From Pseudomonadales bacterium (GTDB lineage Bacteria > Patescibacteriota > Microgenomatia > UBA1400 > PJMF01): a DNA stretch of 64,000 nucleotides. Below are positions 41,524-64,000 of the stretch, piece by piece. Each line of letters starts with the position of its first letter. Position 1 is the stretch's first letter. Below the pieces are notes generated by a model. That model saw nothing but the letters and a program-made list of their open reading frames with translations, was not told the origin of the DNA and searched no databases. The stretch is from assembly GCA_020632235.1 (NCBI GenBank), contig JACKFY010000002.1:11550-75549 (forward strand), in the 5' to 3' direction. Both the position numbers and the translations under genes were made by a program.

Positions 41524-41527
41524 TAGT

Positions 41528-42525: not shown

Positions 42526-42552
42526 TCTGCTCTTTGCTATAATAGCCCCACC

Positions 42553-42933: not shown

Positions 42934-42941
42934 AACCAAAC

Positions 42942-43451: not shown

Positions 43452-43454
43452 CTT

Positions 43455-43931
43455 ATGATCTTTCAAACAACCATAAATCTTTCTCAAGAGGCTGCTGCAC
43501 AAAACCTCACTGGATATGACGCAGACCCCAGCGGCGGTATGGCCTTCCTCATCGGCCGTATTCTCTCTATTGCCATTGTTGTGGGTGCCGTTCTCCTATT
43601 GTTGTATCTTGTTTGGGGTGGCATTGAGTGGATCGCATCTGGCGGTGATAAGGGCAAGCTAGAGTCTGCCCGCAGCAAGATCACCCAGTCAATTATTGGC
43701 ATGATCGTCTTAGCTGGCTCCGTTGCTCTTTTCATGCTGGTGCAAGCGTTTCTTGGTTTTCAAGTCTTGCAATTTAATTTTGTAGGAGGGAGCAGGAATC
43801 CTGGAGGAAATACACCAAATTGTAATTATCAGACACAAACAACATGTAATGCTGCCCCTGGCTGTACCTGGATAATTGATAATAATTTTACACCACCAAA
43901 TGAGTTTTGTATGCCGGATGGAAATGGTTGA
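43455..43931 (+). CDS. T4SS pilin-like protein with a Cys-containing C-terminal tail
   Basis: LSIAIVVGAVLLLLYLVWGGIEWIASGGDKGKLESARSKITQSIIGMIVLAGSVALFMLV, then a tail with five Cys. Confidence 0.5.
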   Translation: MIFQTTINLSQEAAAQNLTGYDADPSGGMAFLIGRILSIAIVVGAVLLLLYLVWGGIEWIASGGDKGKLESARSKITQSIIGMIVLAGSVALFMLVQAFLGFQVLQFNFVGGSRNPGGNTPNCNYQTQTTCNAAPGCTWIIDNNFTPPNEFCMPDGNG

Positions 43932-44062
43932 CAATAACTAAACTATAGGATACAATAAAACCAGTAAAAAGTATTACTTGACTATACCTTGGCTACATGC
44001 CTATAATGTCTTGCCAAGGAGGCAGTACGTAAAAATAGTAGTACACAAATAAAAAGGAAATA

Positions 44063-44479
44063 ATGCTACAAAAAGCACGAAAATCTCTCAACACAGCACT
44101 GGTAACTGCTGGTGCACTCTTGGCAACAAGTATGCCAGCACTTGCACAAGATCCACAAGATCCTATTGGCACTGTTACAGTTCAGAGTACTGATGGTTAT
44201 TTTTCAAATTTTGGCGACCTCATAAGCGATCTTGTAGTTATTGCAATGGCAATTGCTGCATTATTAGTATTTGTTTATCTAATCTGGGGTGGCATTGAAT
44301 GGATCACTTCCGGTGGTGATAAAGGTAAAACTGAGTCTGCTCGCAACAAAATCACTGCAGCAATTATCGGTCTTATCATTCTTGCAGCTTCATATGCCTT
44401 GCTTAGAATTGCTTTAGAGTTTATTGGCGTAGATGGTGGCCTCCAGGGCATACTCAATAGAGCTGGTGGAAACAAATAA
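44063..44479 (+). CDS. T4SS pilin-like protein; candidate major pilin
   Basis: Signal peptide. VIAMAIAALLVFVYLIWGGIEWITSGGDKGKTESARNKITAAIIGLIILAASYALL. Followed by the strongest intrinsic terminator in the array. Confidence 0.6.
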   Translation: MLQKARKSLNTALVTAGALLATSMPALAQDPQDPIGTVTVQSTDGYFSNFGDLISDLVVIAMAIAALLVFVYLIWGGIEWITSGGDKGKTESARNKITAAIIGLIILAASYALLRIALEFIGVDGGLQGILNRAGGNK

Positions 44480-44500
44480 CTTATTGTAGATATACAGGAA

Positions 44501-44540
44501 ACCCCTCACTTTAATTTTTTAACCAAGGTGAGGGGTTTTT
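44501..44540 (+). terminator. Rho-independent terminator (AAACCCCTCAC ... GTGAGGGGTTTTT)
   Basis: 8-11-bp GC-rich stem followed by T5, 22 nt after the stop of the 44063 gene. Confidence 0.7.
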
Positions 44541-44657
44541 CGTTCCAGTTATGCTAAAATATGTGTGGTGTTACAGTACAACTACTTCAATGTATCCTCT
44601 ATTGATTTTTATAGGATATTTTGATATAATAAATCCGTTTACACATAAAATACTCTT

Positions 44658-45224
44658 ATGAAGAAACTTTTTCTCTCTGCTCTACTTGGTTTTTGTCTGA
44701 TGCTTACGCCTAGCGTGTATGCCCAGGGCATGCTCAACACCCCTAGTGACCAAACAGGTGACGTGGTAGCACGCAAAGATGGTGACATACTGTACCTAAC
44801 CACCTCGGTTACTGACAATAGCGCAAGCGGTACTACCGAGCAAACAAGCCAGACAACCACTACTACCTCCAGCACCCAACAAGATGGCGATGTTGTACTG
44901 AATACCTACTTTGGCCAAATTGTGATACCACAAGGCTACTTTCATAACTTTGGAGAGCTTTTCACAAAGCTCCTCACTGCAGCCATGGCGGTGGCAGCTC
45001 TGCTCACGCTTGGGTTTCTCATCTGGGGCGCGTTTAAGTGGATCACCTCTGGCGGTGATAAAGGGAAAATTGACTCAGCTCGCTCGACCCTTATTGCCGC
45101 GGTGGTAGGGCTCATTATTGTCGCTGCCTCGTACGCTATTTTACTACTAACCCTCAACTTCCTCGGCATTGAAGGTGGCCTCAATGGCCTACTACAACGG
45201 GCTGGCTCTGCCATGAGCAACTAA
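44658..45224 (+). CDS. T4SS pilin-like protein, paralog of the 44063 gene with a longer Thr-rich N-terminal region
   Basis: AAMAVAALLTLGFLIWGAFKWITSGGDKGKIDSARSTLIAAVVGLIIVAASYAILLL...GIEGGLNGLLQRAGS; shares the GYFxNFGxL and C-terminal motifs with 44063. Confidence 0.6.
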   Translation: MKKLFLSALLGFCLMLTPSVYAQGMLNTPSDQTGDVVARKDGDILYLTTSVTDNSASGTTEQTSQTTTTTSSTQQDGDVVLNTYFGQIVIPQGYFHNFGELFTKLLTAAMAVAALLTLGFLIWGAFKWITSGGDKGKIDSARSTLIAAVVGLIIVAASYAILLLTLNFLGIEGGLNGLLQRAGSAMSN

Positions 45225-45266
45225 CCTTTTACCTTCCTCAGCTCAAAATCATGCTATACTCCTGGT

Positions 45267-45674
45267 ATGAAACAACATCTGTTTGCTAAAAATCTTTTCA
45301 TCACACTCACGCTTGTATTGTGGAGTGTTTTTTTGCCCGTCCAGGCACATGCCCAGACCAGCGCCTGGGGTGGCACTTGCGTGGGTGGGCCAGACCGTAA
45401 CGTAGCGACTATTCAGGGTCTGGAGTGCTTAGTAGCCAATGTGTTTGTGGTGATTATCACCCTTATCGGCCTGGCTGGGTTTGTGATGTTTATTATTGCC
45501 TCGTTTCGCTGGATGACGGCAGGCAGCAACACCGAAGGCATCAAAAAGGCGCGTGCCACCATGACCTACGCGGTGGTGGGCATTGTGGTCTCGCTTTCTG
45601 CCTTTATAGTGCTCAATGTCCTGGCAGACTTTACTGGAGTTGAAGCCATCAAGGTGTTCCGTATTCCCAGCTGA
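45267..45674 (+). CDS. T4SS pilin-like protein
   Basis: Signal peptide. VFVVIITLIGLAGFVMFIIASFRWMTAGSNTEGIKKARATMTYAVVGIVVSLSAFIVLNVL. Confidence 0.55.
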   Translation: MKQHLFAKNLFITLTLVLWSVFLPVQAHAQTSAWGGTCVGGPDRNVATIQGLECLVANVFVVIITLIGLAGFVMFIIASFRWMTAGSNTEGIKKARATMTYAVVGIVVSLSAFIVLNVLADFTGVEAIKVFRIPS

Positions 45675-46039: not shown

Positions 46040-49000
46040 ATGACAACCAAACCAGCACAACCCACTCAGGCTTCCAGAGCCAAAGCTGGTATAATCGAGG
46101 CCATGTTGGCCCTACGATCTCCCACTCGGTTTTTGTTGTCGTGCCTTTTGGCAAGCAGTCTCTTGCTGCTCTCGGTAAGTGGAGTTTTGGCAGGTAAAGC
46201 GGGCATTAACATTGGCGACCACTTTGGTGAAGTAGACCAAGCAGCACAAATCACCCGTGATGGTGGTTGGATAGTCGTCATGGCACAGCCGGGCGACTGC
46301 ATGGATCTCTCGCAAATGATGGCAGATCACCCCAACACCAACTTTGTTATCCGCGGACACCACCCTCACACCGACGTAATGTCTCCTGAACACGCAAAAG
46401 CATGGGCCTACACCCTAGCCAACATGAATACGGGCGGAAGAAAAGTATATTTTTACCCTGTGAACGAGCCATTTACCCGGGGGGCGCAGGAGGGGTTTTC
46501 CAACGACCCTGCCACCACCGCTCAGATGGTGAACGCGTATGTTGACACTCTTCTCTCTACTGCTCCGGGACTAGACCAAAAGGTGGTATTTCTCTCGCCC
46601 ATGATAAACAGAACACACCCAAACTATGAAAGCAATGTGGACTTGTTGGGCGGAGCAGGTTTTTACAATAAATTTTCTGGTATATCAATGAATTTATATG
46701 ATTTTCAAGGCTGCGGAGGGCCGTTTTGCCACCCCAACAAACATCTTAACTCAGGAAGATTTTTAGAAGACAAAGCGCTCGAAGGCATTGATGCTGGCAA
46801 GCAGGTCTACGCTGTCGAATCTGGCGTGGTAAATGGAAACGTCGTCTACATAGACACCCAACTGCGAACGTACTACGAGGCTGGTTATGGCAGCCCTGGG
46901 CCATTTCTTGACTCCAGGCTGGCAATGACCGCCACATTTTCCTACAACCCCCACGCCAGCGACTGGAGCATCTACGGTACACAGACCGCTAGTTTTTTTC
47001 AGGGGTTGGGTGGTGGAACTGCGCCAATTCCAGAAACCTTTGACGAGGAAGCGTGGTTTGCTGACAACAACATACAAGACAAAATTGACGCAGGCGAGAT
47101 CATCCAGTGTGACGAGTGCGGCTTGAGCCCTTCCACCCCCGACGGGGCTGGCTACTGTGCGGCTGTGGGCAACTATAGTACGACGATCTTCCCCGAGTAC
47201 GAATACGAAAACACCGAGTACTACATCCATCCTATTTGCGAAAATGAAGAGGTGTGCCGAAGTGGTAGTTATGAAGAGGCAACCGTGGAGTATAAAAACA
47301 GCCTCATAAACCAAGGGTATGAGGCCTACTGCGCCAACGAAGAAGTGCAAGTACTCGGCACTACGGGGCAAAACTGGGATCTCTACCTATCACTCATTGC
47401 CTCTGGACAACAACCCGGGAGTCAGCAAACAACACAAAGCGAGTACGTGCTTGACGCCACCAACATGAAGGTGCCGCTATTCAGAGATGTATCGGGTAAA
47501 CGCTGGCGCATGACATCGCTGGAAGAGTTTTTTGGATTTAGAGATATTTACACCAACAAAGACACTGAAAGCCTCATCAACAGCGCTATGATTGAAAAAC
47601 TAACTTCCCAAGAGCAGCGCTGTCAGCTGTCGGTGCAGATCTTGCGGGAGACCAAGCAATTTTGCCAGCGAGAAGAAAATGCAGATACAGCCTCGTGCTA
47701 TCTCAATACTCAGATACCAGACCCTGCCGGCTCGGTAATTGGCAACATGAAGAGACTCGACGCCCTCTCTCTTTTTGAAGGACAAGGCACAACATGCAGT
47801 GAGCTTGTCCAGCGTCAAGACACAGACCCGCTAAAAGCCGCCATTATGAATAATCCATTGTATCTTGAAAGGCTCTATAGACTGGGGTTCTTGGTAACCT
47901 CAGTACGGCAGGTTGCGCCAAATAGCTACACAGGCAATCCCGATACTTTTTTTAGTTTTTTTTCGAATAACTATAGTTCTGGGGTGGGGCTCGCCTACGC
48001 CTCTAGCATGAACGATGTTTCGATCACTGCATTTAAAATCCCTGATGTTGGGCTGGGTCATGACTACGAAAAACTCCAAAACGAAGATGGTTCTACAGCG
48101 GATTTGCAAGACACCAGCATATATACCGACCCATTGTACAACACCAAGCTATCGGTGCTCAGCACCAAGCAACAGCAGTACGCAGCCACCATGAGTGCAG
48201 AGTATAAAGATATACTCAGGCACAACTCATACACCGAGTACGAACGTCCAGATGGCTCTGTCGTTACTGGTCCTCGTCCGTTTGGCGGTAATGACCTCAT
48301 CAACTGCCCTTTCACTCCTGGCTGTGGCGTACCTCATTTTGACCCCAGCACGCCAGTTGACCCGCTTTTTCGTGCAATTATAGACTTGGTCAATACCAAC
48401 AAAGGCATTTACGGCACAGAAGACAAAGATGAAGACGGCAAGCCCGATGTTATTCCTGGCAGGACCTACACAGTAGAAGACATAGCTGATAGAGACAAAG
48501 GTTTGTATCTAAACTGTAAGCCAGAAATAGTCGAGATCACCCCCGAGGGTGTGACGCGCATTTCAGATCCATCGACCATTGATGAGTCTGACCCCTATAG
48601 AAACCTAGAAAATGACCTGGGCGAAACAAACGAACACATCGCGTTGTCTCTGGCAAACAGACTCAGAAACGGTGACACGAGCACTCCTATTTCGAGAACA
48701 AACTTTAGCCCATTTACTTCTATTATCAAATCAACTAATACAGAAAAAAATAGGTACGCTATGATCAACACCTATGTGGTGTATCCGGGAGAGTACGAGG
48801 CAAACGAGATTGCAAATGCTATTCGCAGCCCCTTTGTGCCCTTTGAAGACGCAGAAGAGATTGACATAAACAGACTCAAAGGTTGCGACCCCTACGAAAC
48901 AGACTGTCCGCCACTGCTACAACCAGACGGATCGGTCAAACCAAAAATCCAGAGAGGATTTGAGCTCATTGGAGGTATTTTTCAGTCAAGCTGGGGAAGT

Positions 49001-49750
49001 GTTGTCTTTCCATTCAGGGACGTCACTATCTCGTGCCCACCTGGCGAACCAGACTGCAACTACAAAGAGGCTGGTGCTGGAGTCATTGCGTCCAACCTTA
49101 CCAACACACTGATGATTCCTGGCGAAAAACTAGGTTTTTGGACCAGAGAGATCCAGAAATCACTCAATACCGCCGTCAGCACCCAACGCTCATACCTTGA
49201 CAGCTGTCAGACACTAGAGCAATTTTTACTGGGCACCTGCGGCGGGGCAACAAGTAGTGGTTCTACCACCACTCTAGCCAGTAGTGTTGTACCCACTCCA
49301 ACCATACTAGGAAACCACCAGTGCATACCTGTTCCAGAGGGAAACCCTTACTGCAGCATCTCTGCTATTCAAAGCTTTACGGGCTGGGATGAAGCTCGTG
49401 CCCGCACAGCGTCCATCATCTGTAATGTTGAAAGTGGGGGTAACCCAAATGTAGCAAACACCAGTTGTTTGGTAGGTGGTACTGTTGACTACAGCATCGG
49501 TCTGTTTCAGATCAACCTACTTGCTCACGGTACACCTGGCATTCTGTTTGATGCAAACGGGCGAACAAACGGTAGTCCTGGCTATGACCCAACAGCAGTC
49601 CCCTGCAGTGTTGCCAATGCAGCGCTCCTCGAGCAAAACGAAACGTACTACTTTATTCCTGATAATAACTTGAGAAAAATGGTGGAGTTGTCAAATGATG
49701 GGACCAACTGGCAGCCTTGGGCAGCTGCTAGCTACTGCGGGATCAACTAG
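46040..49750 (+). CDS. giant secreted protein (1236 aa) with a C-terminal Rpf/SLT-like lytic transglycosylase domain and an N-terminal glycoside-hydrolase-like (NEP motif) region; putative T4SS-associated cell-wall hydrolase
   Basis: Signal peptide ~residues 22-50. C-terminus IICNVESGGNPNVANTSCLVGGTVDYSIGLFQIN...W (ESGGN...GLFQI transglycosylase signature). N-terminal region FVIRGHHPH...VYFYPVNEP... Confidence 0.7.
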   Translation: MTTKPAQPTQASRAKAGIIEAMLALRSPTRFLLSCLLASSLLLLSVSGVLAGKAGINIGDHFGEVDQAAQITRDGGWIVVMAQPGDCMDLSQMMADHPNTNFVIRGHHPHTDVMSPEHAKAWAYTLANMNTGGRKVYFYPVNEPFTRGAQEGFSNDPATTAQMVNAYVDTLLSTAPGLDQKVVFLSPMINRTHPNYESNVDLLGGAGFYNKFSGISMNLYDFQGCGGPFCHPNKHLNSGRFLEDKALEGIDAGKQVYAVESGVVNGNVVYIDTQLRTYYEAGYGSPGPFLDSRLAMTATFSYNPHASDWSIYGTQTASFFQGLGGGTAPIPETFDEEAWFADNNIQDKIDAGEIIQCDECGLSPSTPDGAGYCAAVGNYSTTIFPEYEYENTEYYIHPICENEEVCRSGSYEEATVEYKNSLINQGYEAYCANEEVQVLGTTGQNWDLYLSLIASGQQPGSQQTTQSEYVLDATNMKVPLFRDVSGKRWRMTSLEEFFGFRDIYTNKDTESLINSAMIEKLTSQEQRCQLSVQILRETKQFCQREENADTASCYLNTQIPDPAGSVIGNMKRLDALSLFEGQGTTCSELVQRQDTDPLKAAIMNNPLYLERLYRLGFLVTSVRQVAPNSYTGNPDTFFSFFSNNYSSGVGLAYASSMNDVSITAFKIPDVGLGHDYEKLQNEDGSTADLQDTSIYTDPLYNTKLSVLSTKQQQYAATMSAEYKDILRHNSYTEYERPDGSVVTGPRPFGGNDLINCPFTPGCGVPHFDPSTPVDPLFRAIIDLVNTNKGIYGTEDKDEDGKPDVIPGRTYTVEDIADRDKGLYLNCKPEIVEITPEGVTRISDPSTIDESDPYRNLENDLGETNEHIALSLANRLRNGDTSTPISRTNFSPFTSIIKSTNTEKNRYAMINTYVVYPGEYEANEIANAIRSPFVPFEDAEEIDINRLKGCDPYETDCPPLLQPDGSVKPKIQRGFELIGGIFQSSWGSVVFPFRDVTISCPPGEPDCNYKEAGAGVIASNLTNTLMIPGEKLGFWTREIQKSLNTAVSTQRSYLDSCQTLEQFLLGTCGGATSSGSTTTLASSVVPTPTILGNHQCIPVPEGNPYCSISAIQSFTGWDEARARTASIICNVESGGNPNVANTSCLVGGTVDYSIGLFQINLLAHGTPGILFDANGRTNGSPGYDPTAVPCSVANAALLEQNETYYFIPDNNLRKMVELSNDGTNWQPWAAASYCGIN

Positions 49751-51602: not shown

Positions 51603-51612
51603 ACTATCAGAT

Positions 51613-51867
51613 ATGAAAATGGTCACACTCAACACCAAAATTACCCCAAGTCAGCACCAGTGGCTGAAAGAGCAGGCGCAACAAAACAAGATGAGCCTTG
51701 CTGAAACACTCAGACAAATTGTAAAAAAAGCTCAAGAGGAACGAGCGGATGAGCTTATGCAACGAATACGAGACTGGCACGCCAACAACAATCTCACATT
51801 TGATGGTACCGAAGCAGTAGATATCATCCGCAAAGCAAGAGACACTCGTTATGGCCCTGATAGTTGA
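51613..51867 (+). CDS. ribbon-helix-helix antitoxin (CopG family)
   Basis: MKMVTLNTKITPSQHQWLKEQAQQNKMSLAETLRQIV. Confidence 0.6.
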   Translation: MKMVTLNTKITPSQHQWLKEQAQQNKMSLAETLRQIVKKAQEERADELMQRIRDWHANNNLTFDGTEAVDIIRKARDTRYGPDS

Positions 51868-52380: not shown

Positions 52381-54108
52381 ATGCGAAAGAAGCTACTTGC
52401 TCTACTAGCTTTTGTTGTGGTGGGTGTTATTTTTTCCCTCTCTCCTTCTGTAGCTGTAGCCCAAGATGATGCCGACAATAACTTTGGTTATGCTATTGCC
52501 CAAGAAGAAATCACTGCTTATCGCCAAGCTACTGAAAACTGCGATACTCCCTCTCTTGAGTGTCTGGTGCACAACACCACCCGCTTTACCGCAATAGAAA
52601 TCATCTACAATATTATAGGTAGAGAAGACTTTCTTGAAAATGACAGCATAGGATGCGACCCAGCAGACCCCGGGTGTCCCCCTCCTACATCACAAGCTCC
52701 CGCAGATGGCGGTTTTTTAGGTGATATTAACAGCTTTATTGGTAGTATGTACGCCAATCCAGCCGCAAATACCAGAACGTACGTCTCTGACGTGCTTGAC
52801 TCCGCCAACATCGCCCAGCCAGCCTACGCCCAAGGCATTGGCTTTGCATCACTTAACCCCATTCTTTCCATGTGGAAAAAGTTTCGAAACATTGCCTACC
52901 TTGCTTTTGTGGTGCTGTTCATCGTGATCGGCTTTATGATTATGTTTCGCACCAAAATCGGCGGGCAAAACGCGGTCACTACCCAGCAGGCTATTCCCAG
53001 CATTATTGTCAGTTTGCTCTTGGTCACGTTTTCATACGCCATTGCAGGCCTCCTCATAGACCTGATGTACCTATCTATGTTTATGATTGCCGGTATATTT
53101 AACGGCACTGGCTACAGGGGTGGCGACATCATCAGCTATGATATTTTCAACCTCGCAGGCGAAATGTTTAACGCTGGGAAGAACTCATTTGGTGTGGGGG
53201 GCAATATTGTAGAAACTGTGCTCACCGCTGCTAGCGGCAGTACTCTGCTTGGGACGATTGGCGGTATTTTTGGCGGCATAACCCTTGTGCTTGTGCTTGC
53301 CATAGCTATGCTCATCGCTACTTTTAAGCTATTTATAGAGCTACTCAAGTCATACGCTGCTATTGTGCTCAATGTAGTGGCGGCACCCATCATCCTAATG
53401 ACTGGCGCAATACCAGGCAAAAACCCCTTTATGGGGTGGTTTAAAGGCATGGTGGGCAACCTCGCTGCCTTTCCTACCGTCTTACTCATGCTGGTGATGT
53501 ACAAAGAGTTTGTAGAAAATGCGAGTGGGGCGGGAGGGTTTGTGCCACCGTTTACCCTGCAATCTGGCGCAAGCGGAGTAATAGGCTCTATCATGGGCTT
53601 GGCTATTATGCTGGCGTTGCCAGAGATTGTGAAAAAAGTGAAAGAAGTTCTGGGGGCAAAAGATGGATTTGGTGTTGATATTGCAAAAACTGCTGCAGGC
53701 AGAGCTGAAGACTACCTCCCAATGCCATTTATGGCTACTCGCGGTGTTGGTGGCAGTCTAAATGCCATGAGATTAGCTAGAAAAGACAACATGGGTCTAG
53801 CAGATACTTTGAGAGCTGGAAGAGATGGGTATACAAGAATTGATGGCGAAGGACAACTCATGGGTGGTTTACAAGGAAGTTCAAAAGGGTTGTTTGGAGG
53901 AGCAAAGGCTGGATATGACTTTGGCTATAATATAAGAAAAAATATTGACAGAGTAGCAGACGGAAGGCTTGTTGATGTCGAAAATCAAAACAACCTTTTG
54001 GCAAAAATTCAAGAACAAACTAAGCAAAAAGAGCCACCAAAAGGATTTGTTTCTGTTGGTGGAAAACTAAAAAGAGCATCGAGCTATAAACCACCAGAAT
54101 CGCATTAA
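52381..54108 (+). CDS. VirB6/TrbL-like polytopic membrane protein (T4SS channel component candidate)
   Basis: Signal peptide, ~170-aa extracytoplasmic region, six or more TM helices, hydrophilic C-terminal tail. The upstream ORF extension (from 52285) lies inside the repeat element. Confidence 0.5.
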   Translation: MRKKLLALLAFVVVGVIFSLSPSVAVAQDDADNNFGYAIAQEEITAYRQATENCDTPSLECLVHNTTRFTAIEIIYNIIGREDFLENDSIGCDPADPGCPPPTSQAPADGGFLGDINSFIGSMYANPAANTRTYVSDVLDSANIAQPAYAQGIGFASLNPILSMWKKFRNIAYLAFVVLFIVIGFMIMFRTKIGGQNAVTTQQAIPSIIVSLLLVTFSYAIAGLLIDLMYLSMFMIAGIFNGTGYRGGDIISYDIFNLAGEMFNAGKNSFGVGGNIVETVLTAASGSTLLGTIGGIFGGITLVLVLAIAMLIATFKLFIELLKSYAAIVLNVVAAPIILMTGAIPGKNPFMGWFKGMVGNLAAFPTVLLMLVMYKEFVENASGAGGFVPPFTLQSGASGVIGSIMGLAIMLALPEIVKKVKEVLGAKDGFGVDIAKTAAGRAEDYLPMPFMATRGVGGSLNAMRLARKDNMGLADTLRAGRDGYTRIDGEGQLMGGLQGSSKGLFGGAKAGYDFGYNIRKNIDRVADGRLVDVENQNNLLAKIQEQTKQKEPPKGFVSVGGKLKRASSYKPPESH

Positions 54109-54137
54109 AGATTCTTTCAAAGAATAGGTCAAATACA

Positions 54138-56351
54138 TTATTGTTTCTTATCTTCTTTTGGTGGGACAAGCTCTGTTAAGCGGGTGAGGGGGGGGTGATT
54201 ATTTTCTCCAGTATAAATATCAATAGCTTCTTTCTCCTCAGATCCTGGAGAAGAAAAAAACTCCTTAAAGAAACGAGTGCCAGCATATCTATCTCCAAGA
54301 GGAAGGTCTTTCTTTAGAAACATCTTGCTGTAAGCTGTAGCATACCTTTTTCTTTCTTTTTTCCTTCTTCCTGGGCCAATTCTACGAAGGTCTACTGCTT
54401 CTAAGTAGCGAATGGTTTTAGTGAGACTGTCTTTCAAAGGACCCGAGGTAAGACCTGCTGTATCTCTTGTTTGCTCAAGTTTCTCAATTACCTCTCTGTT
54501 GAGTTTTATAAGTTCCTCTGGATTTCCTACGAAGGAAACATACATTCTCATTATTCTGTCTGTGAGGTATGGATAAAGAATAGAGCCCAACCTTTCGGCA
54601 TAAAATACCTTCGTTTTTCCCAGCAGGCCCGTAATTTTTCCTATCTCACTTCCAGATTTATTTGATGAACCAAGAATGTCAGAAGCTTTTAAGTTCTGTG
54701 GAACTGACCCTATTATGAGCTGTAAAAACTCAGCAAAATTTGCCTCAGCGAGTTGGTACTCTCCAAATCCTTGCACATCAGACCTACTTATCTGCAGCGA
54801 AGTGCCATAGACAATCTGGCCATTTACACTTATTTTTTCTTCAGCGCTCAGAAAAAAAATATCTATTGGAGAAAGCAGCGATTTTCCAAGACCAAGCTCT
54901 GGAATTTGATCTATAAGCGGCCCAACATCGTACTGTGAATTTAAGTAAGTAATAACAAGCTCCTTCATTTTTTCTAAATCACCAAACTTTCCTGCTCTGG
55001 CACCTTGTCCACGGTAGCCCATTCTTTGCCCCGAAATCTGGTTAAAAGGAAGCAAATATTGTGATCCATTTCTCTCGTTTCCAGGATATCCATAGGAACT
55101 ATGAAACATATAGGCCATTGGATTCTGCACCGCAACTACTTCATAGCCTTTGCTAGAAGAGCTGTGTTTTGTGCCTCTCGATTTTCTTCTTAACTGTCCT
55201 TCCTGTAAAACAATTGAGGCAAAATCAAATGCAATGAAAGTATTCCAAATAATTGAAAGGAGGGCTTCGTGCAGTTGTTTTTCTATATTTTGGCCAAAAA
55301 AAGAGTCTGGGAAAAGCTGTCGCACAACCTCTCTAAGAAAGTCTTGTCCTGAGTCACTCACTAATTTTTCGTAAAAACCGCCCTCAGTAATAGAGTGGTC
55401 TATAAGAGTGTGTATAGCATCAGATATTTTATTCCCAAAAATAGGGTTGTATGTTGTAATTTGTAACAACTCCTCACGAGTAAGTAGAAATTCATTTACC
55501 CAAGAACTTTCGCCAGGACCATATACAGAAGTTCTGTTTTCAGCAGCCACCTTTCCCACAGATTTTTTTCCTACCATATTGCTGAGAATAAAGCTGTATA
55601 TCTCAGTTTGTTCTATCCAAAAATCGTCATCATGGTGCTTTTGTAGTTCTTTCCCTCCAGCCTTTCTACTCCAAAACTCAACGACATAACTACCAACTTC
55701 CGTTGGATTTTCTGCGCCATAGCCCTGTGCAGAGAGTCTAATCCCCTTTCTCTTCAAATATGCGATCAGATCTCTAGTTGCCATATCTCTTGGAGACTGC
55801 TCTTTCTTTGCTAAATCAAGCCGCTTCAACAAGCTACTAGCTGCATGAATTATCTTGCCTTGACTATAGCTCTTCGTAAAGCCATCCAACTGTTCCACCA
55901 GCTCTTGCAACTTATCAACATCACCATCCACTAAAGCCCCCGTTGCAAACTGACCTTCAATAAGAGCTGTGAGTTGTTGAACCCTACCTATGTCTTTCTT
56001 CACTTCCTCGCTCTCACCACTAGCATCAACAACGGGTGATTCTGTTACGATCGCTGTTTCAGATTCAGAAAGCTCTTTTATTCTGGCTTTTATCCTTTTT
56101 AGATTTTCTAAAATTTCACTTTTTTTAGAATCATCAATCTGAGTAGTTTTTGTCAAATTTTGGTATTGTGTAACAAACTCCCTTCTTTGTGATTTTAATG
56201 TATCTAGGTCATCTGCATCATAGAAATTCAAAGTATCCACCACTCCCTGCAATTCACGTTGAAAACCCTCTACGCCCATTCTTTCTTGAGATGACTTGTT
56301 CTCTTCAGACTGGTTATTCGGAGAATCGCCTTCTCGATTCGGTTCACTCAT
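54138..56351 (-). CDS. hypothetical cytoplasmic protein (737 aa) within the T4SS-like locus
   Basis: Long ORF with balanced composition, no TM segments, no P-loop. Confidence 0.55.
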   Translation of the reverse strand: MSEPNREGDSPNNQSEENKSSQERMGVEGFQRELQGVVDTLNFYDADDLDTLKSQRREFVTQYQNLTKTTQIDDSKKSEILENLKRIKARIKELSESETAIVTESPVVDASGESEEVKKDIGRVQQLTALIEGQFATGALVDGDVDKLQELVEQLDGFTKSYSQGKIIHAASSLLKRLDLAKKEQSPRDMATRDLIAYLKRKGIRLSAQGYGAENPTEVGSYVVEFWSRKAGGKELQKHHDDDFWIEQTEIYSFILSNMVGKKSVGKVAAENRTSVYGPGESSWVNEFLLTREELLQITTYNPIFGNKISDAIHTLIDHSITEGGFYEKLVSDSGQDFLREVVRQLFPDSFFGQNIEKQLHEALLSIIWNTFIAFDFASIVLQEGQLRRKSRGTKHSSSSKGYEVVAVQNPMAYMFHSSYGYPGNERNGSQYLLPFNQISGQRMGYRGQGARAGKFGDLEKMKELVITYLNSQYDVGPLIDQIPELGLGKSLLSPIDIFFLSAEEKISVNGQIVYGTSLQISRSDVQGFGEYQLAEANFAEFLQLIIGSVPQNLKASDILGSSNKSGSEIGKITGLLGKTKVFYAERLGSILYPYLTDRIMRMYVSFVGNPEELIKLNREVIEKLEQTRDTAGLTSGPLKDSLTKTIRYLEAVDLRRIGPGRRKKERKRYATAYSKMFLKKDLPLGDRYAGTRFFKEFFSSPGSEEKEAIDIYTGENNHPPLTRLTELVPPKEDKKQ

Positions 56352-56434
56352 ACCCTCAAATTATACCACTGTTACCCCTGCCAGACCATACTGCCCCCAC
56401 AAATCTGCGCTAGAGTTCGCTATAATCAAACAAA

Positions 56435-59400
56435 ATGTTTGACGCTCGTACTGACTCGCCAGAAACAACAGAGCAAACCGCTCAAGACAACCAGGGTGGG
56501 CAAAGCATACCCAGGGGGCACGTACTTGTCTCCGACCTCAAGCATCTCAAGACTGGCCTGGCAGGAAATGACTGGCAGCAGCTAGAGAAATTGCTCTTGT
56601 CTATCCTTGGCGCACTTGATGGTGAACACCACCTGCTGCATGACCAAAAAATAACCATTGCTCTTGAGGATGGAATGGGAGAACTGACCACAACCAACGA
56701 GCCGCACTCGGCTTTTGGGCGAGAAGAACAAAAAGTCTGGTTGTTTTTTACCGATGTTCTTAGTATTTCTCTTGACGCGCTCGAGCAGCTAGAGGTGCCT
56801 GGATACTCAGAGAGTGAGGTTGCAGCAAAGCTAAACAGCTTTTCAAACAAAACAGGGGCAGACTCTGGCGTTATAGATGAAGTAGAGCTGGTGGATAATC
56901 AAAACCTGCGCTTTGAGGTATTTGAGATTGTACAAGCTGCCTACGAGGCAGTTTTGGCCCATATCAATGCACAAACGAAACAAGAGCCGCCAGAAAAAGA
57001 AACAGATAAAAGCGAAACAACTTCTGATGATCCAGGGTTAAAAAAGCAACAAAGGGGTGATGCTGTAACTCTTTCTGGGGCAAAAGTACGAAGAAAAGAA
57101 ACAACGGAGGGAGGCGGTGAAACAGGCCAAACCCAACCAGCCCAGCAAACACTACAAGAAGAAAAGCTCTACGGCACGCGCACTGCTGCCCAGGCCTTCC
57201 AGTACCAAGCTGCCTGGCTGCAGGCTGCAGGCATGCATCAGATTGCTACCCAGCTAGGGATTGATATTGACAGCCTGGGGGCAGAACAACAAGCGCTACT
57301 GCGCACTGCGCTACAAAACGCCATAGGCCAGTATCTGAGCGATCCGCGCAACTTGCAAAACCTAAGCGACCTAAAAAATGCCGACATATACCGCCTAGAG
57401 GCATTACGAGAGATAACGAGACTGCTGAATGGACAAAAACTCCAGATTGTCTTGACTAGAGTAGATGAGCAAGGAGTAGAAGCACAAAGCGAGACAAGCG
57501 TTACCCTAGACCAACCCACCACCGTTGACGACACACAACTACTCTCCCAGGCAATACGCCAGCACTTCCCCAATGTAAGTAACCAACAAATTGTCACTAT
57601 TGAGCAAATGCTGCACACACTAGAGGTACTAAACGGCTCTAGCGTTACTATCACCCCCACTATTGTTATTGAGATCTTTGAACAAGCCACCGCCATTCGC
57701 CTCTCTCCAGACGACCCGCGCCTGCTCTCACTCGTTGCTTTTTTCAAGACCTTTGTGGTGATGCAGGTCAAGGAAGCTGCCCTGATCACAGAAAATAAAG
57801 ACACAGAAAGTGGTATTACTATTGCCGGTACTCCCAGAGAAAGCCTAGAGCAACACTACTCACCTCGCACTATCGTATTAGCAGAAACAAGCAAAGATGA
57901 GCCAGAAGTTCTCCCCGCAGAGCAAAGAGAAAATGTGGCTCGCCGGGCTGGCCGGCTGGGGGATCGCCAGTTTTTGAAAGTACAAAAAATGTATGGCCCC
58001 GTGTGGAACAGCTTTACTGCCGAGCAACAAGAAGCTATCGCCGCTTATATCCAAAGCAAAAACCCCCAGTTTACCCCCTACCGAGACCCCATCAGCAAAG
58101 AACTGCTCTTTCCCATCGAGTTTACCTGGCTCTCGGGCAGTGAGTTAAAGCGTGTTGTTGAGAAAAAAACGAGTGGTGGGGTTGTTATTGACTCGGCGCA
58201 GGCAAATAACTCTGTGGCAGAGTTTGAGCGACTGCGGATAGATCCGAAAATCCAAGAGCAACTTGAGGTAATCGAGCTAGAACAGCTCTACTCCCAGGCA
58301 TTGCTTGAACAACTCGATGAGCAGCAAAAGCAAATCTTATTAAACCAGCTGGTACAGGAACAGATCGCCAAGTACCAGGCTCAACTAGAGTACTTTGCGG
58401 CAGTAGAACAGTTGGAGCAGCAGATCTTCATTCAACAAAGACGTGCATATATAGAGCAACAACTAGCACTTCTAGAGGCTGGAGAAGCACAACTAGCAGA
58501 TTTTCAATATGCCCAGATGATGGGTGGGATTGTCTCCCAAGAACGACAACAAGCAGCTTGGGAAGCAGCAAAGGCGGGTGGTGAGCCTATTCCAGAAGGA
58601 ACTACTCCCAGTCGATTTTTCAAACGAGGGCAAACTGCTGGAAGTATAAGAAACACTACTGTCAATAAAGCAACAAAGCGCGCTCAAGATCTAAAAGAGT
58701 TAGCAAAGCTAGCTGCTGCTGCGGGCAGAGTAGCAAGTGGCGACATCAAGGCGCTTGTTGATGTTATTCGCAATAAGCAATTTAGAAAACTTGTGAAATA
58801 CCTCGGCTTAGGAGGCATCGCGGGAGGGGTTATTTCTTATATTCTGGGGGGACTAAAAGCGCTCGCAGGATTTGTGGGTGGTGGAGTTATTGGTGGTACT
58901 GTTGGTGGATTCATTGGCTTTTCAATTGGAGGTCCGCTTGGAATTATACCAGGCATTCTTGTCGGCTCAGCAATCGGAGGGACTATAGGCTCAGCAATTG
59001 GAGGAACTATGGGAGGGTGGCAGGGTGGGTTCACTTCCTCTATCGGCACCACAGAGGGTCTTTCAAATATCCAGGCTGCCACTGGCGGTGTCAGCAACAT
59101 CGTGACAGGAACAGGTGGACAAGCAGCTGGCGCAGGAGGATCTACTCTCACTACCTCAGGTGGAGGTGCGGGAGGATTTGGGACAGCTACAACTACCACA
59201 GCTGCCACTGGTGGTGGAGGCGTTATTGCAAGCGCAACGGGCGCGGCTGCAGCGGCCGCCAGTGCTCTGGGTATTGGCGTACTAGCCCCAGCCATGGGTA
59301 TTGCCATGATTGCTGGTATGTCGCTCTATAACCTTTGGATCATCCAACACTCATTTTTAGCACCCCTACCCCTGGGCACACCTCTCACCGCCCAGCCAAG

Positions 59401-60310
59401 CTACTCCCAGTACATCGAGGTAGAAAAATCGGTCACCCCCAGCGTGCTGGAAAACGGCAGTGCGCCGCCCACCCAGCTGACCTACACCATCACCATTCGC
59501 CCCAGGAGTCTGTACCAGGTAGAGATCATAAGCGCCACCGACACCTTTCAGTTTTTGGGCAAAGACGGGGAAAAAGTAGATCCCGTTATTACAGAGCTAG
59601 ACAGCAACAACCAACACCCAGTCGATTTACAGACGGATTTTGACATCACACCAGCCGAAAAGGTAACTACCACCAAGACAGGCACCTACACCTTTACCAT
59701 CACCAACTCCCCCACCGACGTCATGATCCAGAACACCTTTGAGGTAGACTTTATCGCGTACGACGGCACAGGCGCCCAGGTGGCAACAGACAGCATCACC
59801 GCCACTGCCCAGCTGCCGGTGGGAACGCCAGAGATATTTGGCTGTTGGCCCACGACGGGCTCTATCACCCAGCTACCATACAACCTACGGTCATGGAGTT
59901 CTACCTCCCAGTTCGCGGACGGCCACAGCAGGGTGGCAGAATACAACCACGACGCATTTGACATTGCTAATGGTGCTGGCACACCTATTTATGCGCCATT
60001 TTCAGGAACTGCCTTTACGGGCAATAGTTTTGCAGGGGGGATATGGGGATATGGATACTATGTAGTACTAAAAACCAACAGCAATCAAAGCCTTATGTTT
60101 GCCCACATGACACGACAAGCGTTTTCGGGCACAAAGAGTGTTACAGCAGGAGAAACCATAGGGTTTATGGGCAGTACTGGCAACAGCAGGGGAAGCCATC
60201 TTCACTACGGTATACTAGAGACGACCAGCACTCCTTTTGGGGTCCTTAGAACGCTTGTTCCTGATAGAAGCGCTCCACTTAATACATATGTAACAAGCTG
60301 CTATGACTAA
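56435..60310 (+). CDS. giant protein (1291 aa): coiled-coil N-terminal region, Gly-rich membrane segment, beta-rich region, C-terminal peptidase M23 (LytM) domain
   Basis: C-terminus HDAFDIANGAGTPIYAPFSGTAF...GYGYYVVLKTNSNQSLMFAHMT...GETIGFMGSTGNSRGSHLHYGI (HxxxD ... HxH M23 signature). Central GGIAGGVISYILGGLKALAGFVGGGVIGG... Confidence 0.75.
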   Translation: MFDARTDSPETTEQTAQDNQGGQSIPRGHVLVSDLKHLKTGLAGNDWQQLEKLLLSILGALDGEHHLLHDQKITIALEDGMGELTTTNEPHSAFGREEQKVWLFFTDVLSISLDALEQLEVPGYSESEVAAKLNSFSNKTGADSGVIDEVELVDNQNLRFEVFEIVQAAYEAVLAHINAQTKQEPPEKETDKSETTSDDPGLKKQQRGDAVTLSGAKVRRKETTEGGGETGQTQPAQQTLQEEKLYGTRTAAQAFQYQAAWLQAAGMHQIATQLGIDIDSLGAEQQALLRTALQNAIGQYLSDPRNLQNLSDLKNADIYRLEALREITRLLNGQKLQIVLTRVDEQGVEAQSETSVTLDQPTTVDDTQLLSQAIRQHFPNVSNQQIVTIEQMLHTLEVLNGSSVTITPTIVIEIFEQATAIRLSPDDPRLLSLVAFFKTFVVMQVKEAALITENKDTESGITIAGTPRESLEQHYSPRTIVLAETSKDEPEVLPAEQRENVARRAGRLGDRQFLKVQKMYGPVWNSFTAEQQEAIAAYIQSKNPQFTPYRDPISKELLFPIEFTWLSGSELKRVVEKKTSGGVVIDSAQANNSVAEFERLRIDPKIQEQLEVIELEQLYSQALLEQLDEQQKQILLNQLVQEQIAKYQAQLEYFAAVEQLEQQIFIQQRRAYIEQQLALLEAGEAQLADFQYAQMMGGIVSQERQQAAWEAAKAGGEPIPEGTTPSRFFKRGQTAGSIRNTTVNKATKRAQDLKELAKLAAAAGRVASGDIKALVDVIRNKQFRKLVKYLGLGGIAGGVISYILGGLKALAGFVGGGVIGGTVGGFIGFSIGGPLGIIPGILVGSAIGGTIGSAIGGTMGGWQGGFTSSIGTTEGLSNIQAATGGVSNIVTGTGGQAAGAGGSTLTTSGGGAGGFGTATTTTAATGGGGVIASATGAAAAAASALGIGVLAPAMGIAMIAGMSLYNLWIIQHSFLAPLPLGTPLTAQPSYSQYIEVEKSVTPSVLENGSAPPTQLTYTITIRPRSLYQVEIISATDTFQFLGKDGEKVDPVITELDSNNQHPVDLQTDFDITPAEKVTTTKTGTYTFTITNSPTDVMIQNTFEVDFIAYDGTGAQVATDSITATAQLPVGTPEIFGCWPTTGSITQLPYNLRSWSSTSQFADGHSRVAEYNHDAFDIANGAGTPIYAPFSGTAFTGNSFAGGIWGYGYYVVLKTNSNQSLMFAHMTRQAFSGTKSVTAGETIGFMGSTGNSRGSHLHYGILETTSTPFGVLRTLVPDRSAPLNTYVTSCYD

Positions 60311-61325
60311 TATTAAAAAAGCCACCTTCTCACAAAAAGTGCGCCACTTTATCCAAACGCTCCCTAATTGGCTTAAAGCAATAGTATTATTTGTTTTTTT
60401 TGCTCTTGTGGCATCGTCTATTTTTCAATCTCTTACAACTCAAAGACAATCGGTCGTGCGCGTCTCTGAAGGCCAAGTAAATTACTTGGGTGAAACAACT
60501 ACTTTTGAAGACATAGTATTTGTTGGTACTACTTCGAGCTTAGAAACAACAGGTAGTATCTACTCAACTTCTCTTACAAATCAGGGCGAGCAAATTGCAC
60601 AACGACTTATCGAGCGTTATGCACTACTTCCCTCTCCACACCTTGATGATCTGTGGGTAAATGGCGAAAGTTCACTTTCATACGATGCATTGAGCCAAGA
60701 ATTTCTCTTTATTCCTGGCTTAAGTACATCAGAAAACACCCAGGGCGTGTTTAATACCGCAGCTGCCATCCAGGAGGCACAGCAGTTCTTAACAAACGAT
60801 CTGCAGATACAAAACATAACCCCTCTACAAGAAGGTATTATATATTTTGATAGCGGTTATGAGTTTAACAAAACATCCGAGCTAAAAGCGACAATTGCAC
60901 AAATTCCTTTTGCCCAAACCACAGTAGAAAACAACCCCGTCTTTCAGAATACTGCATACACCCCTCCTTATATCGTGGTTATTGACAAGGACAACACTCT
61001 CTTAAAAGTTGTGTTTTCACCTTATATGTTTAGTGCTAGAGCTGAGCAAGAAGCGGATCTCATTTCTGTCAACACAGCTATAGAAAATATTAACAACAAT
61101 CAAGGGATTCTTATTCAAACAGAGCACAATCCCTTTGAGTACACACCCCTTGACTCCATTAATAGTGGGAGCTTGGATCAAGCGAGTGTTGAGTATAGAC
61201 TAGATACAGACCAATCGCTCATCTACCCCTTCTACCGTTTCACTGGCACGCTCACCAACAACCAAGGGCAGTCATTTGAGGGCACTATCATCACCCCAGC
61301 CGTCGAAACTACTCATCAGCCTTAA
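60303..61325 (+). CDS. membrane-anchored protein (340 aa), candidate VirB8/TcpC-like T4SS component
   Basis: Short cytoplasmic N-terminus, one TM (AIVLFVFFALVASSIF), ~300-aa extracytoplasmic region. Size and topology resemble Gram-positive VirB8 homologs; the assignment rests on synteny and topology only. Confidence 0.35.
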   Translation: MTNIKKATFSQKVRHFIQTLPNWLKAIVLFVFFALVASSIFQSLTTQRQSVVRVSEGQVNYLGETTTFEDIVFVGTTSSLETTGSIYSTSLTNQGEQIAQRLIERYALLPSPHLDDLWVNGESSLSYDALSQEFLFIPGLSTSENTQGVFNTAAAIQEAQQFLTNDLQIQNITPLQEGIIYFDSGYEFNKTSELKATIAQIPFAQTTVENNPVFQNTAYTPPYIVVIDKDNTLLKVVFSPYMFSARAEQEADLISVNTAIENINNNQGILIQTEHNPFEYTPLDSINSGSLDQASVEYRLDTDQSLIYPFYRFTGTLTNNQGQSFEGTIITPAVETTHQP

Positions 61326-61410
61326 ATGACCCTTTTTGGACTATTTTTGTCACCACTGTGTGCTATGGTCTAGTGCTCGCGCTCGTGGTGCGCTATACTT
61401 GCCAGAGAGT

Positions 61411-62613
61411 ATGCGCGAACATCCTATTCCCCAAGACATCACTGGTTATCGCTTTCACATCATCGGCAACATGACGCTCAAGCAGTTTGGCGAGTTGGCA
61501 CTTGGTGTTATTGTGGCTGTTATTGTGTATGCCACCAACTTGCCCATTATTTTAAAGTGGCCACTCATTGCTCTATTTGGCTTGATGGGTGTAGTTGCTG
61601 CATTTGTCCCCATTGCCGAAAGACCTCTCGACCACTGGCTGCTTGCGTTTTTTCGAGCACTCTACAAACCAACCCTCTTTTTTTGGAAAAAATCTCCCAA
61701 CATCCCGCCCTCACTCATCCATAACGCGTCAAAAGAACAAGTGGTAGTAGAGCAAGAACTAGATCTTTCCCCCCACCGCAAACAGCGCATCCGCGAGTAC
61801 ATTCACTCTGTCTCGAGAACAAAAACTATTATTTCTCAAGAAGAAAAACAAGAAAAACAACGAGTTGCGCAGATACTAGAGCAGTTTGAAGTTGGAACTA
61901 CCACCCCGCCACAGGGCGCAGTTGCTACAAAACAAAAACCAACACTAGGAGTGCGCGTGCGCCAAGTGCAGTTTGAGGTAGAAAACCTCAACAACCTTCC
62001 TGTTACCAAACACACAAAACAGGAAAAGGTCGTGTTTGCTCCACCACCCTCTCGGCTCGCAGAAGTACAGCCCCAAAGCGCAGAACAAGAGTTGGCCAAT
62101 GCGGCAAAATCAAAACTTGCGGTTGATCAGGTAGCGCACAAAGTAGAAATTCCTGAAACAACCCTCATCGAGGTAGACAAGTTGCACAACATTGACGAGG
62201 TTGCCGCCCAAGACACCCAAGACAACGCAGCAGCCTACATTGCTACAACACACACACCACAGAATGAAGTGGTGGCGAGCAGCAGCGCCTCGTTTAACAC
62301 CAACCTTCCCTTCCCCACCCTCCCCTCCACCCCCAACACGCCAGTCGGCATGGTGCTTGACGGTCAAAATAACTTGCTCAGCGGCGTTATTGTTGAGATT
62401 CAAACAACAACAGGTGCAGTTGCACGAGCAGTAAAGACCAATAAACTCGGTCAATTTAGTGTTTCAACACCGCTCAAAGATGGTGAGTACGTGCTCTCGG
62501 CAGAAAAGCCAGGGTACGTATTTGCAAAACAATCACTTTCTACCCATAACCAACACCTCCCTCCTATCGAAATCCGCGGCTCTGTTGACCCAAGCCACTC
62601 ACAAACAGTATGA
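61411..62613 (+). CDS. VirB3/TcpE-like two-TM domain protein with a C-terminal carboxypeptidase-regulatory-like beta-sandwich domain
   Basis: N-terminus PIPQDITGYRFHIIGNMTLKQFGELALGVIVAVIVYA...LIALFGLMGVVAAFVPI (TcpE/PrgI-like). C-terminus GMVLDGQNNLLSGVIVEIQTTTGAVARAVKTNKLGQFSV...GEYVLSAEKPGYV. Confidence 0.5.
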   Translation: MREHPIPQDITGYRFHIIGNMTLKQFGELALGVIVAVIVYATNLPIILKWPLIALFGLMGVVAAFVPIAERPLDHWLLAFFRALYKPTLFFWKKSPNIPPSLIHNASKEQVVVEQELDLSPHRKQRIREYIHSVSRTKTIISQEEKQEKQRVAQILEQFEVGTTTPPQGAVATKQKPTLGVRVRQVQFEVENLNNLPVTKHTKQEKVVFAPPPSRLAEVQPQSAEQELANAAKSKLAVDQVAHKVEIPETTLIEVDKLHNIDEVAAQDTQDNAAAYIATTHTPQNEVVASSSASFNTNLPFPTLPSTPNTPVGMVLDGQNNLLSGVIVEIQTTTGAVARAVKTNKLGQFSVSTPLKDGEYVLSAEKPGYVFAKQSLSTHNQHLPPIEIRGSVDPSHSQTV

Positions 62614-62624
62614 TGAAGTAACGC

Positions 62625-64000
62625 CATGCCCACCAACTACACCCAGTCAACCACCCAAGAGTATCTTGATATTTATGACATCACCAACAACCTCGTGGTG
62701 ATGAAAGATGGCTCTACTAGCATGATCTTGACGGTAGATGCCATGAACTTTGGCCTCTTGGCAGAAGAGGAGCAAGACGCAGTGATGTATGCCTACGCAG
62801 GGCTCCTTAACTCACTCAATTACCCTATTCAAGTCATTGTAAAGTCACAGACAAAAGACGTAACCTCATACCTTCAACGTCTCAAAGAACAAGAAATAAA
62901 AGCGAGCTCTCGACTAAACCAAGAGAGAATTGGGCGATACCGAGAGTTTGTGAGCAACCTTATTCGCGAGCGAAATGTGCTTGATAAAAAATTCTATGTT
63001 GTTATTCCTGCCACCGCCATTGAGTTGGGTATTGTGCCCGCAAGCAGTGTGCTGCCTGGCAAACAATCATTTAACGCCGAGAGTGTAGACAAGCCTGTTC
63101 TACTTGAAAAAGCCCAAACAGTACTTGAACCAAAACGAGATCACATTGTTTCTCAGTTTGCCCGGATTGGACTCTACTCTCGGCAGTTAGAAACACAAGA
63201 GATTATCCAGTTGTTTTATGTCAGCTACAACCCAGAAGCGGCAGAAGGTCAACAACTAGGCGAAACACAAAGCTATGCCTCACCACTAGTGAGCACCTTT
63301 TCAGAAGAGGTGGCTGTGCCAGAAGTAGTCCCAGTGTCTGAAGAACCTGTTGGTGAGGTGCCTATAAGTCAGTCTCAGCCAGAGGCTGATCCTGCTTTGG
63401 CGCAAGTGAGTGGTGCGACAGTAAACCCAGATTCTCTCCGTCAGCTGACGGATCGACATGACGAAGCGGAGATCGACATGACAAGTAACAATCAACCCCA
63501 GCCAGAGGCTAATCCGCCTTTGGCGGAAATAACCACTTTAGTAGACAAAAGTACTAATACTCAACCAGAGGTGATGGGTGAAATGAGTACTTCACCACAG
63601 CAAAGTGACGAAAAAATCCCCCCACCCACCATCCCTAAAGCCATTTTCTCTGGTCCTACGTCAGCTCCATCAACTGATGAAGTTCAAACACAGATTTATT
63701 CAGATCTGGCACAAACGAATAACATAATAGTAAACCCAGATTCTCTCCCTCAGCCGATGGATCGAAATGACAAAGTGGAGATCGACACGACAGATGACAA
63801 CCAGACAATAGCCAACAAACATCAGTCGGAGGAGGAGGCCCTAGAAGCCACAAATCAGCCGGAACAAAGCCCTCAGAACGCCCAGGAGGCCCTAAATTCT
63901 CTCGCGGGACAAGTTGTTTCAGCTCCTCCTCAACCACAAATTAATCCTGCTTTAGTGCAAGCACCCAACTCCCAAACGCTCTCTCGTACCTCAGCTGTCT
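62625..64000 (+). CDS. VirB4-like T4SS ATPase N-terminal region (CagE/TrbE/VirB4-type domain) with a repeat-containing low-complexity insertion; ORF runs off the window
   Basis: YDITNNLVVMKDGSTSMILTVDAMNFGLLAEEEQDAVMYAYAGLLNSLNYPIQVIVKSQ matches the VirB4 N-terminal pattern (compare A. tumefaciens VirB4 HIVLLEDGSIMSIARIDGVAFELEE...). The frame stays open for 1376 nt to the window end. Not in the ORF table because it has no stop. Confidence 0.6.

Follow-up and report, generated by a model that had tools for sequence, protein, structure and literature searches.

A chromosomal gene cluster of a Woesebacteria-like bacterium (Microgenomatia) as the probable core of a Patescibacteria-type type IV secretion system

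What kind of machine is encoded by a chromosomal gene cluster that resembles the core of a type IV secretion system (T4SS) and has no relaxase gene beside it? The question is raised by a 64 kb stretch of chromosome (the window) from a Woesebacteria-like bacterium of the Microgenomatia, within the Patescibacteria (candidate phyla radiation, CPR). In a preliminary description of one end of this window, six open reading frames (ORFs) had been read as a VirB6-like membrane protein, a divergent hypothetical protein, a giant protein with a peptidase domain, a TcpC/VirB8-like protein, a VirB3/TcpE-like protein and a VirB4-like ATPase. All six ORFs were found where they had been placed, and their overall assignment to a monoderm T4SS core without a relaxase was upheld, while two of the individual assignments, the VirB4 ATPase (the ORF at 62626) and the TcpC/VirB8-like protein of 340 amino acids (aa), had to be given up. 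We conclude that the region is very probably the core of a Patescibacteria-type T4SS, carried on the chromosome, and that the locus is a vertically inherited cell-envelope machine rather than a mobile element. Such a system has already been published for Patescibacteria, and the locus is a real example of it and not a new kind; what is new here, the structure-based candidates for VirB6 and for the protein in the VirB8 position in Microgenomatia, would be a small added value.

This conclusion is carried first of all by the conservation of the locus as a unit. The synteny set comprised 83 related loci, 80 of them from a scan with one genome per GTDB species, in which the relatives were at most 76% identical, and three in further relatives. 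By tblastn, a PrgI-like gene was detected in 82 of the 83 loci, the ATPase gene in 79, dnaA in 73, dnaN and the giant hydrolase gene in 66 each, and the gene for the 340-aa protein in 52, and the genes of these loci keep the same order and orientation. About 80 other species have this gene order too, so that the arrangement is not due to chance, and because both order and orientation are conserved across the related loci, we regard the locus as vertically inherited and chromosomal, situated near the replication origin, and not as an integrative and conjugative element (ICE). In two relatives, the gene that follows the last ORF of our window encodes an ATPase of 674-682 aa, and this is followed by dnaA, dnaN, rpmH, rnpA and yidC; in the source genome, dnaA is likewise expected close to the locus. 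Proteins 100% identical to those of the locus are also carried by the 'Candidatus Woesebacteria' metagenome-assembled genome GCA_020429115.1. The locus is larger than the six genes first noted, which do belong to it: it begins at about 39.5 kb with a pilin array, continues with a lytic-transglycosylase-like protein, and, judged by synteny, would reach virB4 and dnaA beyond the window end.

The known systems of Patescibacteria offer a close match. Using transposon sequencing, Wang et al. 2023 showed that a T4SS cluster (SEML1_0006-0019) and a pilin array are essential for the epibiotic growth of Southlakia epibionticum, and they found neither a recognisable relaxase nor a coupling protein (PMC10633639). 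In their survey of 3,035 Patescibacteria genomes, Quiñonero-Coronel et al. 2025 found the VirB4 clade to be nested in MPF_FATA, with TrsD as the most abundant associated component, located next to VirB4, and PrgI/VirB3 as a common one; arrays of 2-11 VirB2 genes were abundant in Microgenomatia, relaxases were nearly absent, and the locus lay near dnaA in Microgenomatia and Paceibacteria (PMC12102498). A 2025 review describes the Patescibacteria systems as unique among monoderm T4SSs (PMC12857230). Our locus shares with them the chromosomal location, the (here presumed) proximity of the locus to dnaA and of TrsD to VirB4, PrgI/VirB3, a divergent pilin array, peptidase and lysozyme hydrolases, an unlinked VirD4-like gene and the lack of a relaxase, and we noted no essential difference, the 11-gene pilin array matching the upper limit of the published sizes.

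Could the locus instead be a conventional conjugative element of the Tcp/ICEBs1 type known from Gram-positive bacteria, an ICE or a plasmid integrated in the chromosome, which exports single-stranded DNA and has a relaxase and an oriT that are located beyond the window or have diverged past recognition? As the preliminary description had stated, the window holds no relaxase: none of the window ORFs scanned matched a relaxase family, and a 3H-type motif was absent from every reading frame of at least 150 aa in the 64 kb. Integrases were also absent from the 64 kb. The window does contain a possible coupling protein, a VirD4/TraD-like P-loop ATPase of 776 aa (18487..20817, minus strand) with one N-terminal transmembrane (TM) segment and the Walker A sequence GKTGTGKS, which matched DUF87 (34.5 bits) and TrwB_AAD_bind (30.9 bits) above the cut-offs, and the NCBIfam TraD and CD1115 profiles far below theirs. 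This gene would favour conjugation, as would the conjugative CD1110 VirB4 being the nearest family of the relatives' ATPase and the derivation of the PrgI, TrsD and hydrolase parts from MPF_FATA conjugation systems (PMC12102498). However, the gene is unlinked, lying about 34 kb from the locus (about 30 kb in the earlier estimate), and its counterpart in S. epibionticum is non-essential; relaxases number just 109 in the 3,035 surveyed genomes, and for 99.3% of VirB4 proteins the nearest homologue belongs to the same class (all PMC12102498). The locus moreover keeps the same chromosomal place by dnaA-dnaN in about 80 species. The combination that defines a conjugative ICE or plasmid of monoderms, a relaxase with a linked coupling protein and functions for integration and excision, is missing from the window, and the conjugative-element explanation is largely refuted by the absence of relaxase and integrase together with the conserved chromosomal position; we consider it highly improbable. 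The earlier suggestion that contact-dependent secretion or DNA uptake is as plausible as conjugation can be taken further, as the function is probably not conjugation, consistent with previous reports (PMC12102498, PMC10633639, PMC12857230).

One correction concerns the last ORF of the window (62626..64000, plus strand, still open at the window end), which had been taken for the VirB4-like ATPase. It consists of a conserved domain (residues 1 to about 222) and a disordered tail, rich in Pro, Gln and Thr, that is 236 residues long or longer, and no ATPase family, P-loop or Walker motif was detected in the 458 residues present in the window. Over the conserved domain, the 712 homologues are 53-76% identical to it, and the 120 listed among them are stand-alone proteins of 224-379 aa which carry only PF26593 ('TraC-like') and no ATPase domain. 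NCBIfam profiles for TrsD (E 2e-5) and VirB4_plasma (positions 102-238 of 894, E 7e-6) matched the ORF weakly. PF26593 is assigned to it in precomputed annotation; in the Pfam scan run here, PF26593 gave no match and only a faint one to TraC_F_IV (E 0.04) was returned, and the TrsD domain profile found no meaningful match among PDB chains. The VirB4 ATPase assignment was rejected, given the lack of an ATPase motif and the stand-alone TraC-like homologues, and we describe the ORF as a TrsD-like protein that corresponds to no more of VirB4 than its N-terminal domain.

Where, then, is the ATPase? In the relatives, the TrsD-like gene lies directly upstream of the ATPase gene. The ATPases of the two relatives exceeded the cut-off of the NCBIfam CD1110 VirB4-like profile (383 and 376 versus 325 bits) and aligned to its positions 170-734 of 752, without the N-terminal part; they also matched P-loop_TraG, AAA_10 and DUF87, and CagE_TrbE_VirB at 20.0 bits (cut-off 21). 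Because the ORF at 62626 has no P-loop and the relatives' ATPase has no N-terminal part, the VirB4 function appears to be shared out between two proteins, a TrsD-like head and a separate ATPase body, an arrangement known from Gram-positive systems of the pGO1 type. Judged from gene order in the relatives, the VirB4 ATPase of the source genome would sit just past the end of the window. The staphylococcal pGO1/pSK41-type MPF_FATA system (TrsC, TrsD, TrsE, TrsG) is similar in having a separate TrsD that resembles the VirB4 N-terminal domain just before the VirB4 ATPase, a small VirB3-like membrane protein and a large hydrolase. It differs in being a plasmid with relaxase, oriT and coupling protein and in having no VirB2-like pilins, whereas the TrsD of our locus has a long disordered tail. 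Across species, this Pro-rich tail varies from 0 to about 450 aa and in many cases closes with a conserved PP..LPEI motif; tandem repeats were sought in the tail of the window ORF and none were found, and public assemblies of the source species break inside it.

The gene before the TrsD-like one encodes the PrgI/VirB3-like protein (61411..62613, plus strand), whose ORF gives 425 aa from 61336 or 400 aa from 61411, the ATG used in public annotation. With a PrgI (PF12666) score of 31.7 bits, above the cut-off of 27, and two TM segments, the VirB3 part of the original VirB3/TcpE-like assignment was confirmed, and TcpE gave no match. The protein has a long C-terminal extension that ends in a beta-sandwich-like domain; the carboxypeptidase-regulatory-like domain proposed at this place was borderline, CarboxypepD_reg scoring 30.9 bits, just under the 32.3 cut-off. 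Two TM segments would place this extension of about 300 aa on the same side as the N-terminus, though a beta-sandwich-like domain of this kind is usually extracellular.

Peptidoglycan hydrolysis is divided between two giant proteins, as had been proposed, and both hydrolase domains scored above the Pfam cut-offs. The first is the secreted or anchored protein of 1236 aa (46040..49750, plus strand) that follows the pilin array and has a hydrophobic segment at its N-terminus and a C-terminal lytic-transglycosylase-like domain (SLT_3, PF18896; 32 bits versus 27, residues 1115-1228) suited to a VirB1-like function. The second, of 1291 aa (56435..60310, plus strand), has a long N-terminal region, Gly-rich membrane segments at about residues 809-962 and a C-terminal M23 peptidoglycan peptidase domain (Peptidase_M23; 64 bits versus 28.7, residues 1171-1262) with the HxxxD and HxH motifs, and it is also matched by NCBIfam peptidoglycan hydrolase profiles; its Gly-rich TM segment and M23 domain had been recognised correctly, and a PrgK/VirB1-like role can be proposed for it. 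The C-terminal hydrolase of the giant protein varies among the relatives, with M23 here and in one of them (L005, plus a weak NAGPA match) and a faint CHAP match in another (L007). The N-terminal body persists while the hydrolase domain differs, and therefore the cell-wall-cutting module appears to be swapped.

Upstream of these genes, 11 paralogous VirB2-like pilin genes occupy 39459..45674 on the plus strand, with starts at 39459, 40607, 40978, 41528, 41971, 42553, 42942, 43455, 44063, 44658 and 45267. The T4SS_pilin family (PF18895) was matched at or above its 26.6-bit cut-off by seven of the 11, at 26.1 bits by an eighth and weakly by the remaining three, and a two-helix hydrophobic hairpin is common to all. 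Pairwise identity among the paralogues is 25% on average and 59% at most, and an array of this kind is as expected for the T4SS of the Patescibacteria clade.

The parallel with the Gram-positive Tcp layout, drawn in the preliminary description, can be accepted as far as the general monoderm T4SS layout is concerned. Like the Tcp system of Clostridium perfringens plasmid pCW3 (TcpC, TcpE, TcpF, TcpG, TcpH), our locus combines a bitopic protein, a small two-TM protein, a (here presumed) VirB4-type ATPase, a hydrolase and a VirB6-like polytopic protein. In contrast, none of the TcpC, TcpE and TcpH families was matched by the locus, and the relatives' ATPase scored 22 bits against TcpF, for which the cut-off is 1100. 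The best match of the 340-aa protein is not the TcpC/NTF2 fold, VirB4 is split, pilins are present, and the locus has neither a relaxase nor a TcpA-type coupling protein.

Which proteins could take the places of VirB8 and VirB6? According to the survey, VirB8 is almost undetectable outside the class ABY1, and VirB6 is scarce in Microgenomatia, which was ascribed to 'extreme sequence divergence' (PMC12102498); compared with the Microgenomatia of that survey, our locus offers a VirB6 candidate, on weak evidence, and a protein with a YycH/YycI fold in the VirB8 position. The latter is the 340-aa protein (60303..61325, plus strand), a bitopic membrane protein with one N-terminal TM segment. A word-indexed search returned only the protein itself, and an exhaustive HMMER search found 385 homologues. 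The structure predicted from 102 sequences was of high quality (pLDDT, the predicted local distance difference test, 92.8; predicted template modelling score 0.84), and its only significant Foldseek matches in the PDB were to YycH (E 8.6e-7 and 4.9e-5), YycH/YycI being the best fold matches. Since these significant matches were to YycH alone, we describe the protein as bitopic, with tandem alpha/beta domains of the YycH/YycI type, in the VirB8 position. In none of the 102 family members were VirB8 (PF04335) or TcpC (PF12642) among the leading Pfam matches, and a profile search of PDB sequences with the family gave nothing relevant. The TcpC/VirB8-like assignment, lacking a sequence match and with the closest fold elsewhere, was not retained; the protein is a plausible functional analogue of VirB8/TcpC rather than a demonstrated member, and it may fill the bitopic scaffold role that VirB8/TcpC hold in other systems. 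It is distinct from the YycH/YycI regulators of the kinase WalK themselves (Bacillus subtilis; PDB 2fgt, 2o3o), with 12-16% identity, no WalK/WalR nearby and a T4SS operon as its context.

The VirB6 candidate is a polytopic membrane protein of 575 aa from the ATG (52381..54108, plus strand), selected on topology and weak fold matches as a highly divergent VirB6. Its seven hydrophobic segments bear out the polytopic topology noted before and comprise a signal-like segment, followed by a Cys-containing extracytoplasmic region, and then six more hydrophobic helices before a Gly-rich tail. The family counts at least 1074 proteins, and a Pfam domain was present in none of the 120 matches listed. 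Sequence profiles did not support the VirB6-like assignment: the window protein matched neither TrbL (PF04610) nor PrgH-type profiles, TrbL matched one of 66 family members (E 0.008), and a profile search of PDB sequences with the family returned nothing. When the AlphaFold2 model (pLDDT 69) was compared with the PDB by Foldseek, the top five matches were all TrwI/VirB6 of R388, although they were weak (E 0.02-0.3, probability at most 0.97, TM-score about 0.35). With this weak fold support, the 575-aa protein is likely, but not proven, to be a divergent VirB6 channel subunit. Directly upstream of its gene, at 51571-52129 on the plus strand, a ribbon-helix-helix antitoxin-like gene overlaps a gene for a 92-aa PIN-domain protein.

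Several points weigh against the assignment to the Patescibacteria-type T4SS. The VirB6 assignment leans on a Foldseek E-value of about 0.02, low TM-scores and a model of limited pLDDT; the fold search with the 340-aa model found no VirB8-type fold; and the VirB4 ATPase itself lies outside the window, which ends inside the preceding gene. In addition, no Microgenomatia system has been the subject of an experiment, and even for Saccharibacteria it is not known what is transported or in which direction (PMC11665869). Another explanation would be that the genes do not form one machine, and that T4SS-like genes (PrgI, TrsD-like) stand by chance beside unrelated envelope proteins, namely the hydrolases, a YycH/YycI-like kinase regulator and an unrelated membrane protein. 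The failure of the VirB6 and VirB8 assignments in every sequence profile, the closeness in fold of the 340-aa protein to a kinase regulator family, its top match, and the poor conservation of the 737-aa gene (see below) are compatible with that explanation. We nevertheless consider it very unlikely, as the order giant hydrolase, bitopic protein, PrgI, TrsD and VirB4 is kept across about 80 species, no histidine kinase is found nearby, and the top five PDB matches of the VirB6-like model are all VirB6.

How might a Patescibacteria-type T4SS of this composition work? On the basis of inference and the literature, TrsD, VirB4, VirB3 (PrgI) and the VirB6-like protein would form the membrane translocon, the giant SLT and M23 hydrolases would open the cell wall locally, the variable VirB2-like pilins would form a tube reaching the host cell, and the YycH/YycI-like 340-aa protein would act as a scaffold. 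The machine would then move proteins or other macromolecules between epibiont and host, and would not conjugate DNA. The function has been called 'completely unknown', with effector export or nucleic acid import proposed (PMC11665869). Provided that the locus belongs to the Patescibacteria T4SS, we lean modestly towards contact-dependent export or host manipulation, and conjugation is scarcely to be expected. Import of host macromolecules would, under the same proviso, be an unlikely function. In such an import machine, a cell unable to make nucleotides would be supplied through the channel and pilus with nucleic acids or other building blocks from its host, in the manner of H. pylori ComB or the archaeal Ced system. 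Import via the T4SS has been proposed (PMC11665869), and a 2026 preprint describes a patescibacterium in culture that uses the RNA of its host as food, with tubular structures, maybe T4SS pili, at the interface with its host (10.64898/2026.06.21.733656). The relatives' VirB4 also gave sub-threshold matches to the DNA-import ATPases CedB and CedD, but these were far below the cut-offs and reflect the common ATPase fold, and the direction of transport is not readable from sequence; we hold import to be improbable as an account of the locus.

It is conceivable, though we would put it forward only tentatively, that the locus represents a distinct monoderm T4SS architecture, with a disguised VirB6, a YycH/YycI-fold protein at the VirB8 position and a VirB4 split into an ATPase body and a TrsD-like head whose long disordered tail ends in PP..LPEI, perhaps serving as a pilus-tipped conduit for the uptake of host macromolecules. 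Before the T4SS of Patescibacteria, no such system had been shown to be essential to its own carrier, and, with its substrate unknown, the Patescibacteria system is among the foremost candidates for the means by which ultrasmall epibionts exploit their hosts. Our locus provides a clear example from Microgenomatia in which the list of parts is complete, and the candidates for VirB6 and for the VirB8 position could guide work by cryo-electron tomography or complex prediction.

One gene interrupts the series. The divergently transcribed 737-aa protein (54138..56351, minus strand), between the VirB6 candidate and the giant M23 protein, was confirmed as an ORF and has no family match in profile scans (Pfam, NCBIfam). 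In GC content its gene marks the low point of the window (0.398 over 54-56 kb versus about 0.46), and an iterative hidden Markov model search among the related loci detected homologues in four of them only, while many related loci hold a large minus-strand gene at the same position. The gene is far more poorly conserved than those around it, a pattern suggestive of a rapidly evolving or replaced gene.

Outside the locus, the window carries housekeeping genes throughout, including those for 23S rRNA, phosphoglycerate kinase (pgk), ribosomal protein S1 and peptidyl-tRNA hydrolase (pth), as well as genes for a RecF/SMC-type ATPase, MacB/ABC and major facilitator superfamily transporters, and an ATP-dependent DNA ligase of the three-domain, archaeal/eukaryal type (28647-30488, minus strand). 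The 23S rRNA gene is represented by a fragment (1-1498, minus strand) in which Rfam model positions 1-1129 are spread over 1498 nt, leaving about 370 nt extra, likely as one or more insertions. The only gene upstream of it is tRNA-Ala(TGC) (1807-1881, minus strand), with no adjacent 16S gene, and the rRNA genes therefore appear to be unlinked. The second of the two tRNAs in the window, a tRNA-Ile with the anticodon TAT (14949-15023, minus strand), represents an uncommon bacterial way of reading AUA. An IS30-family transposase gene (5544-6398, plus strand) and a separate VapC toxin gene (33078-33509, plus strand) are also present.

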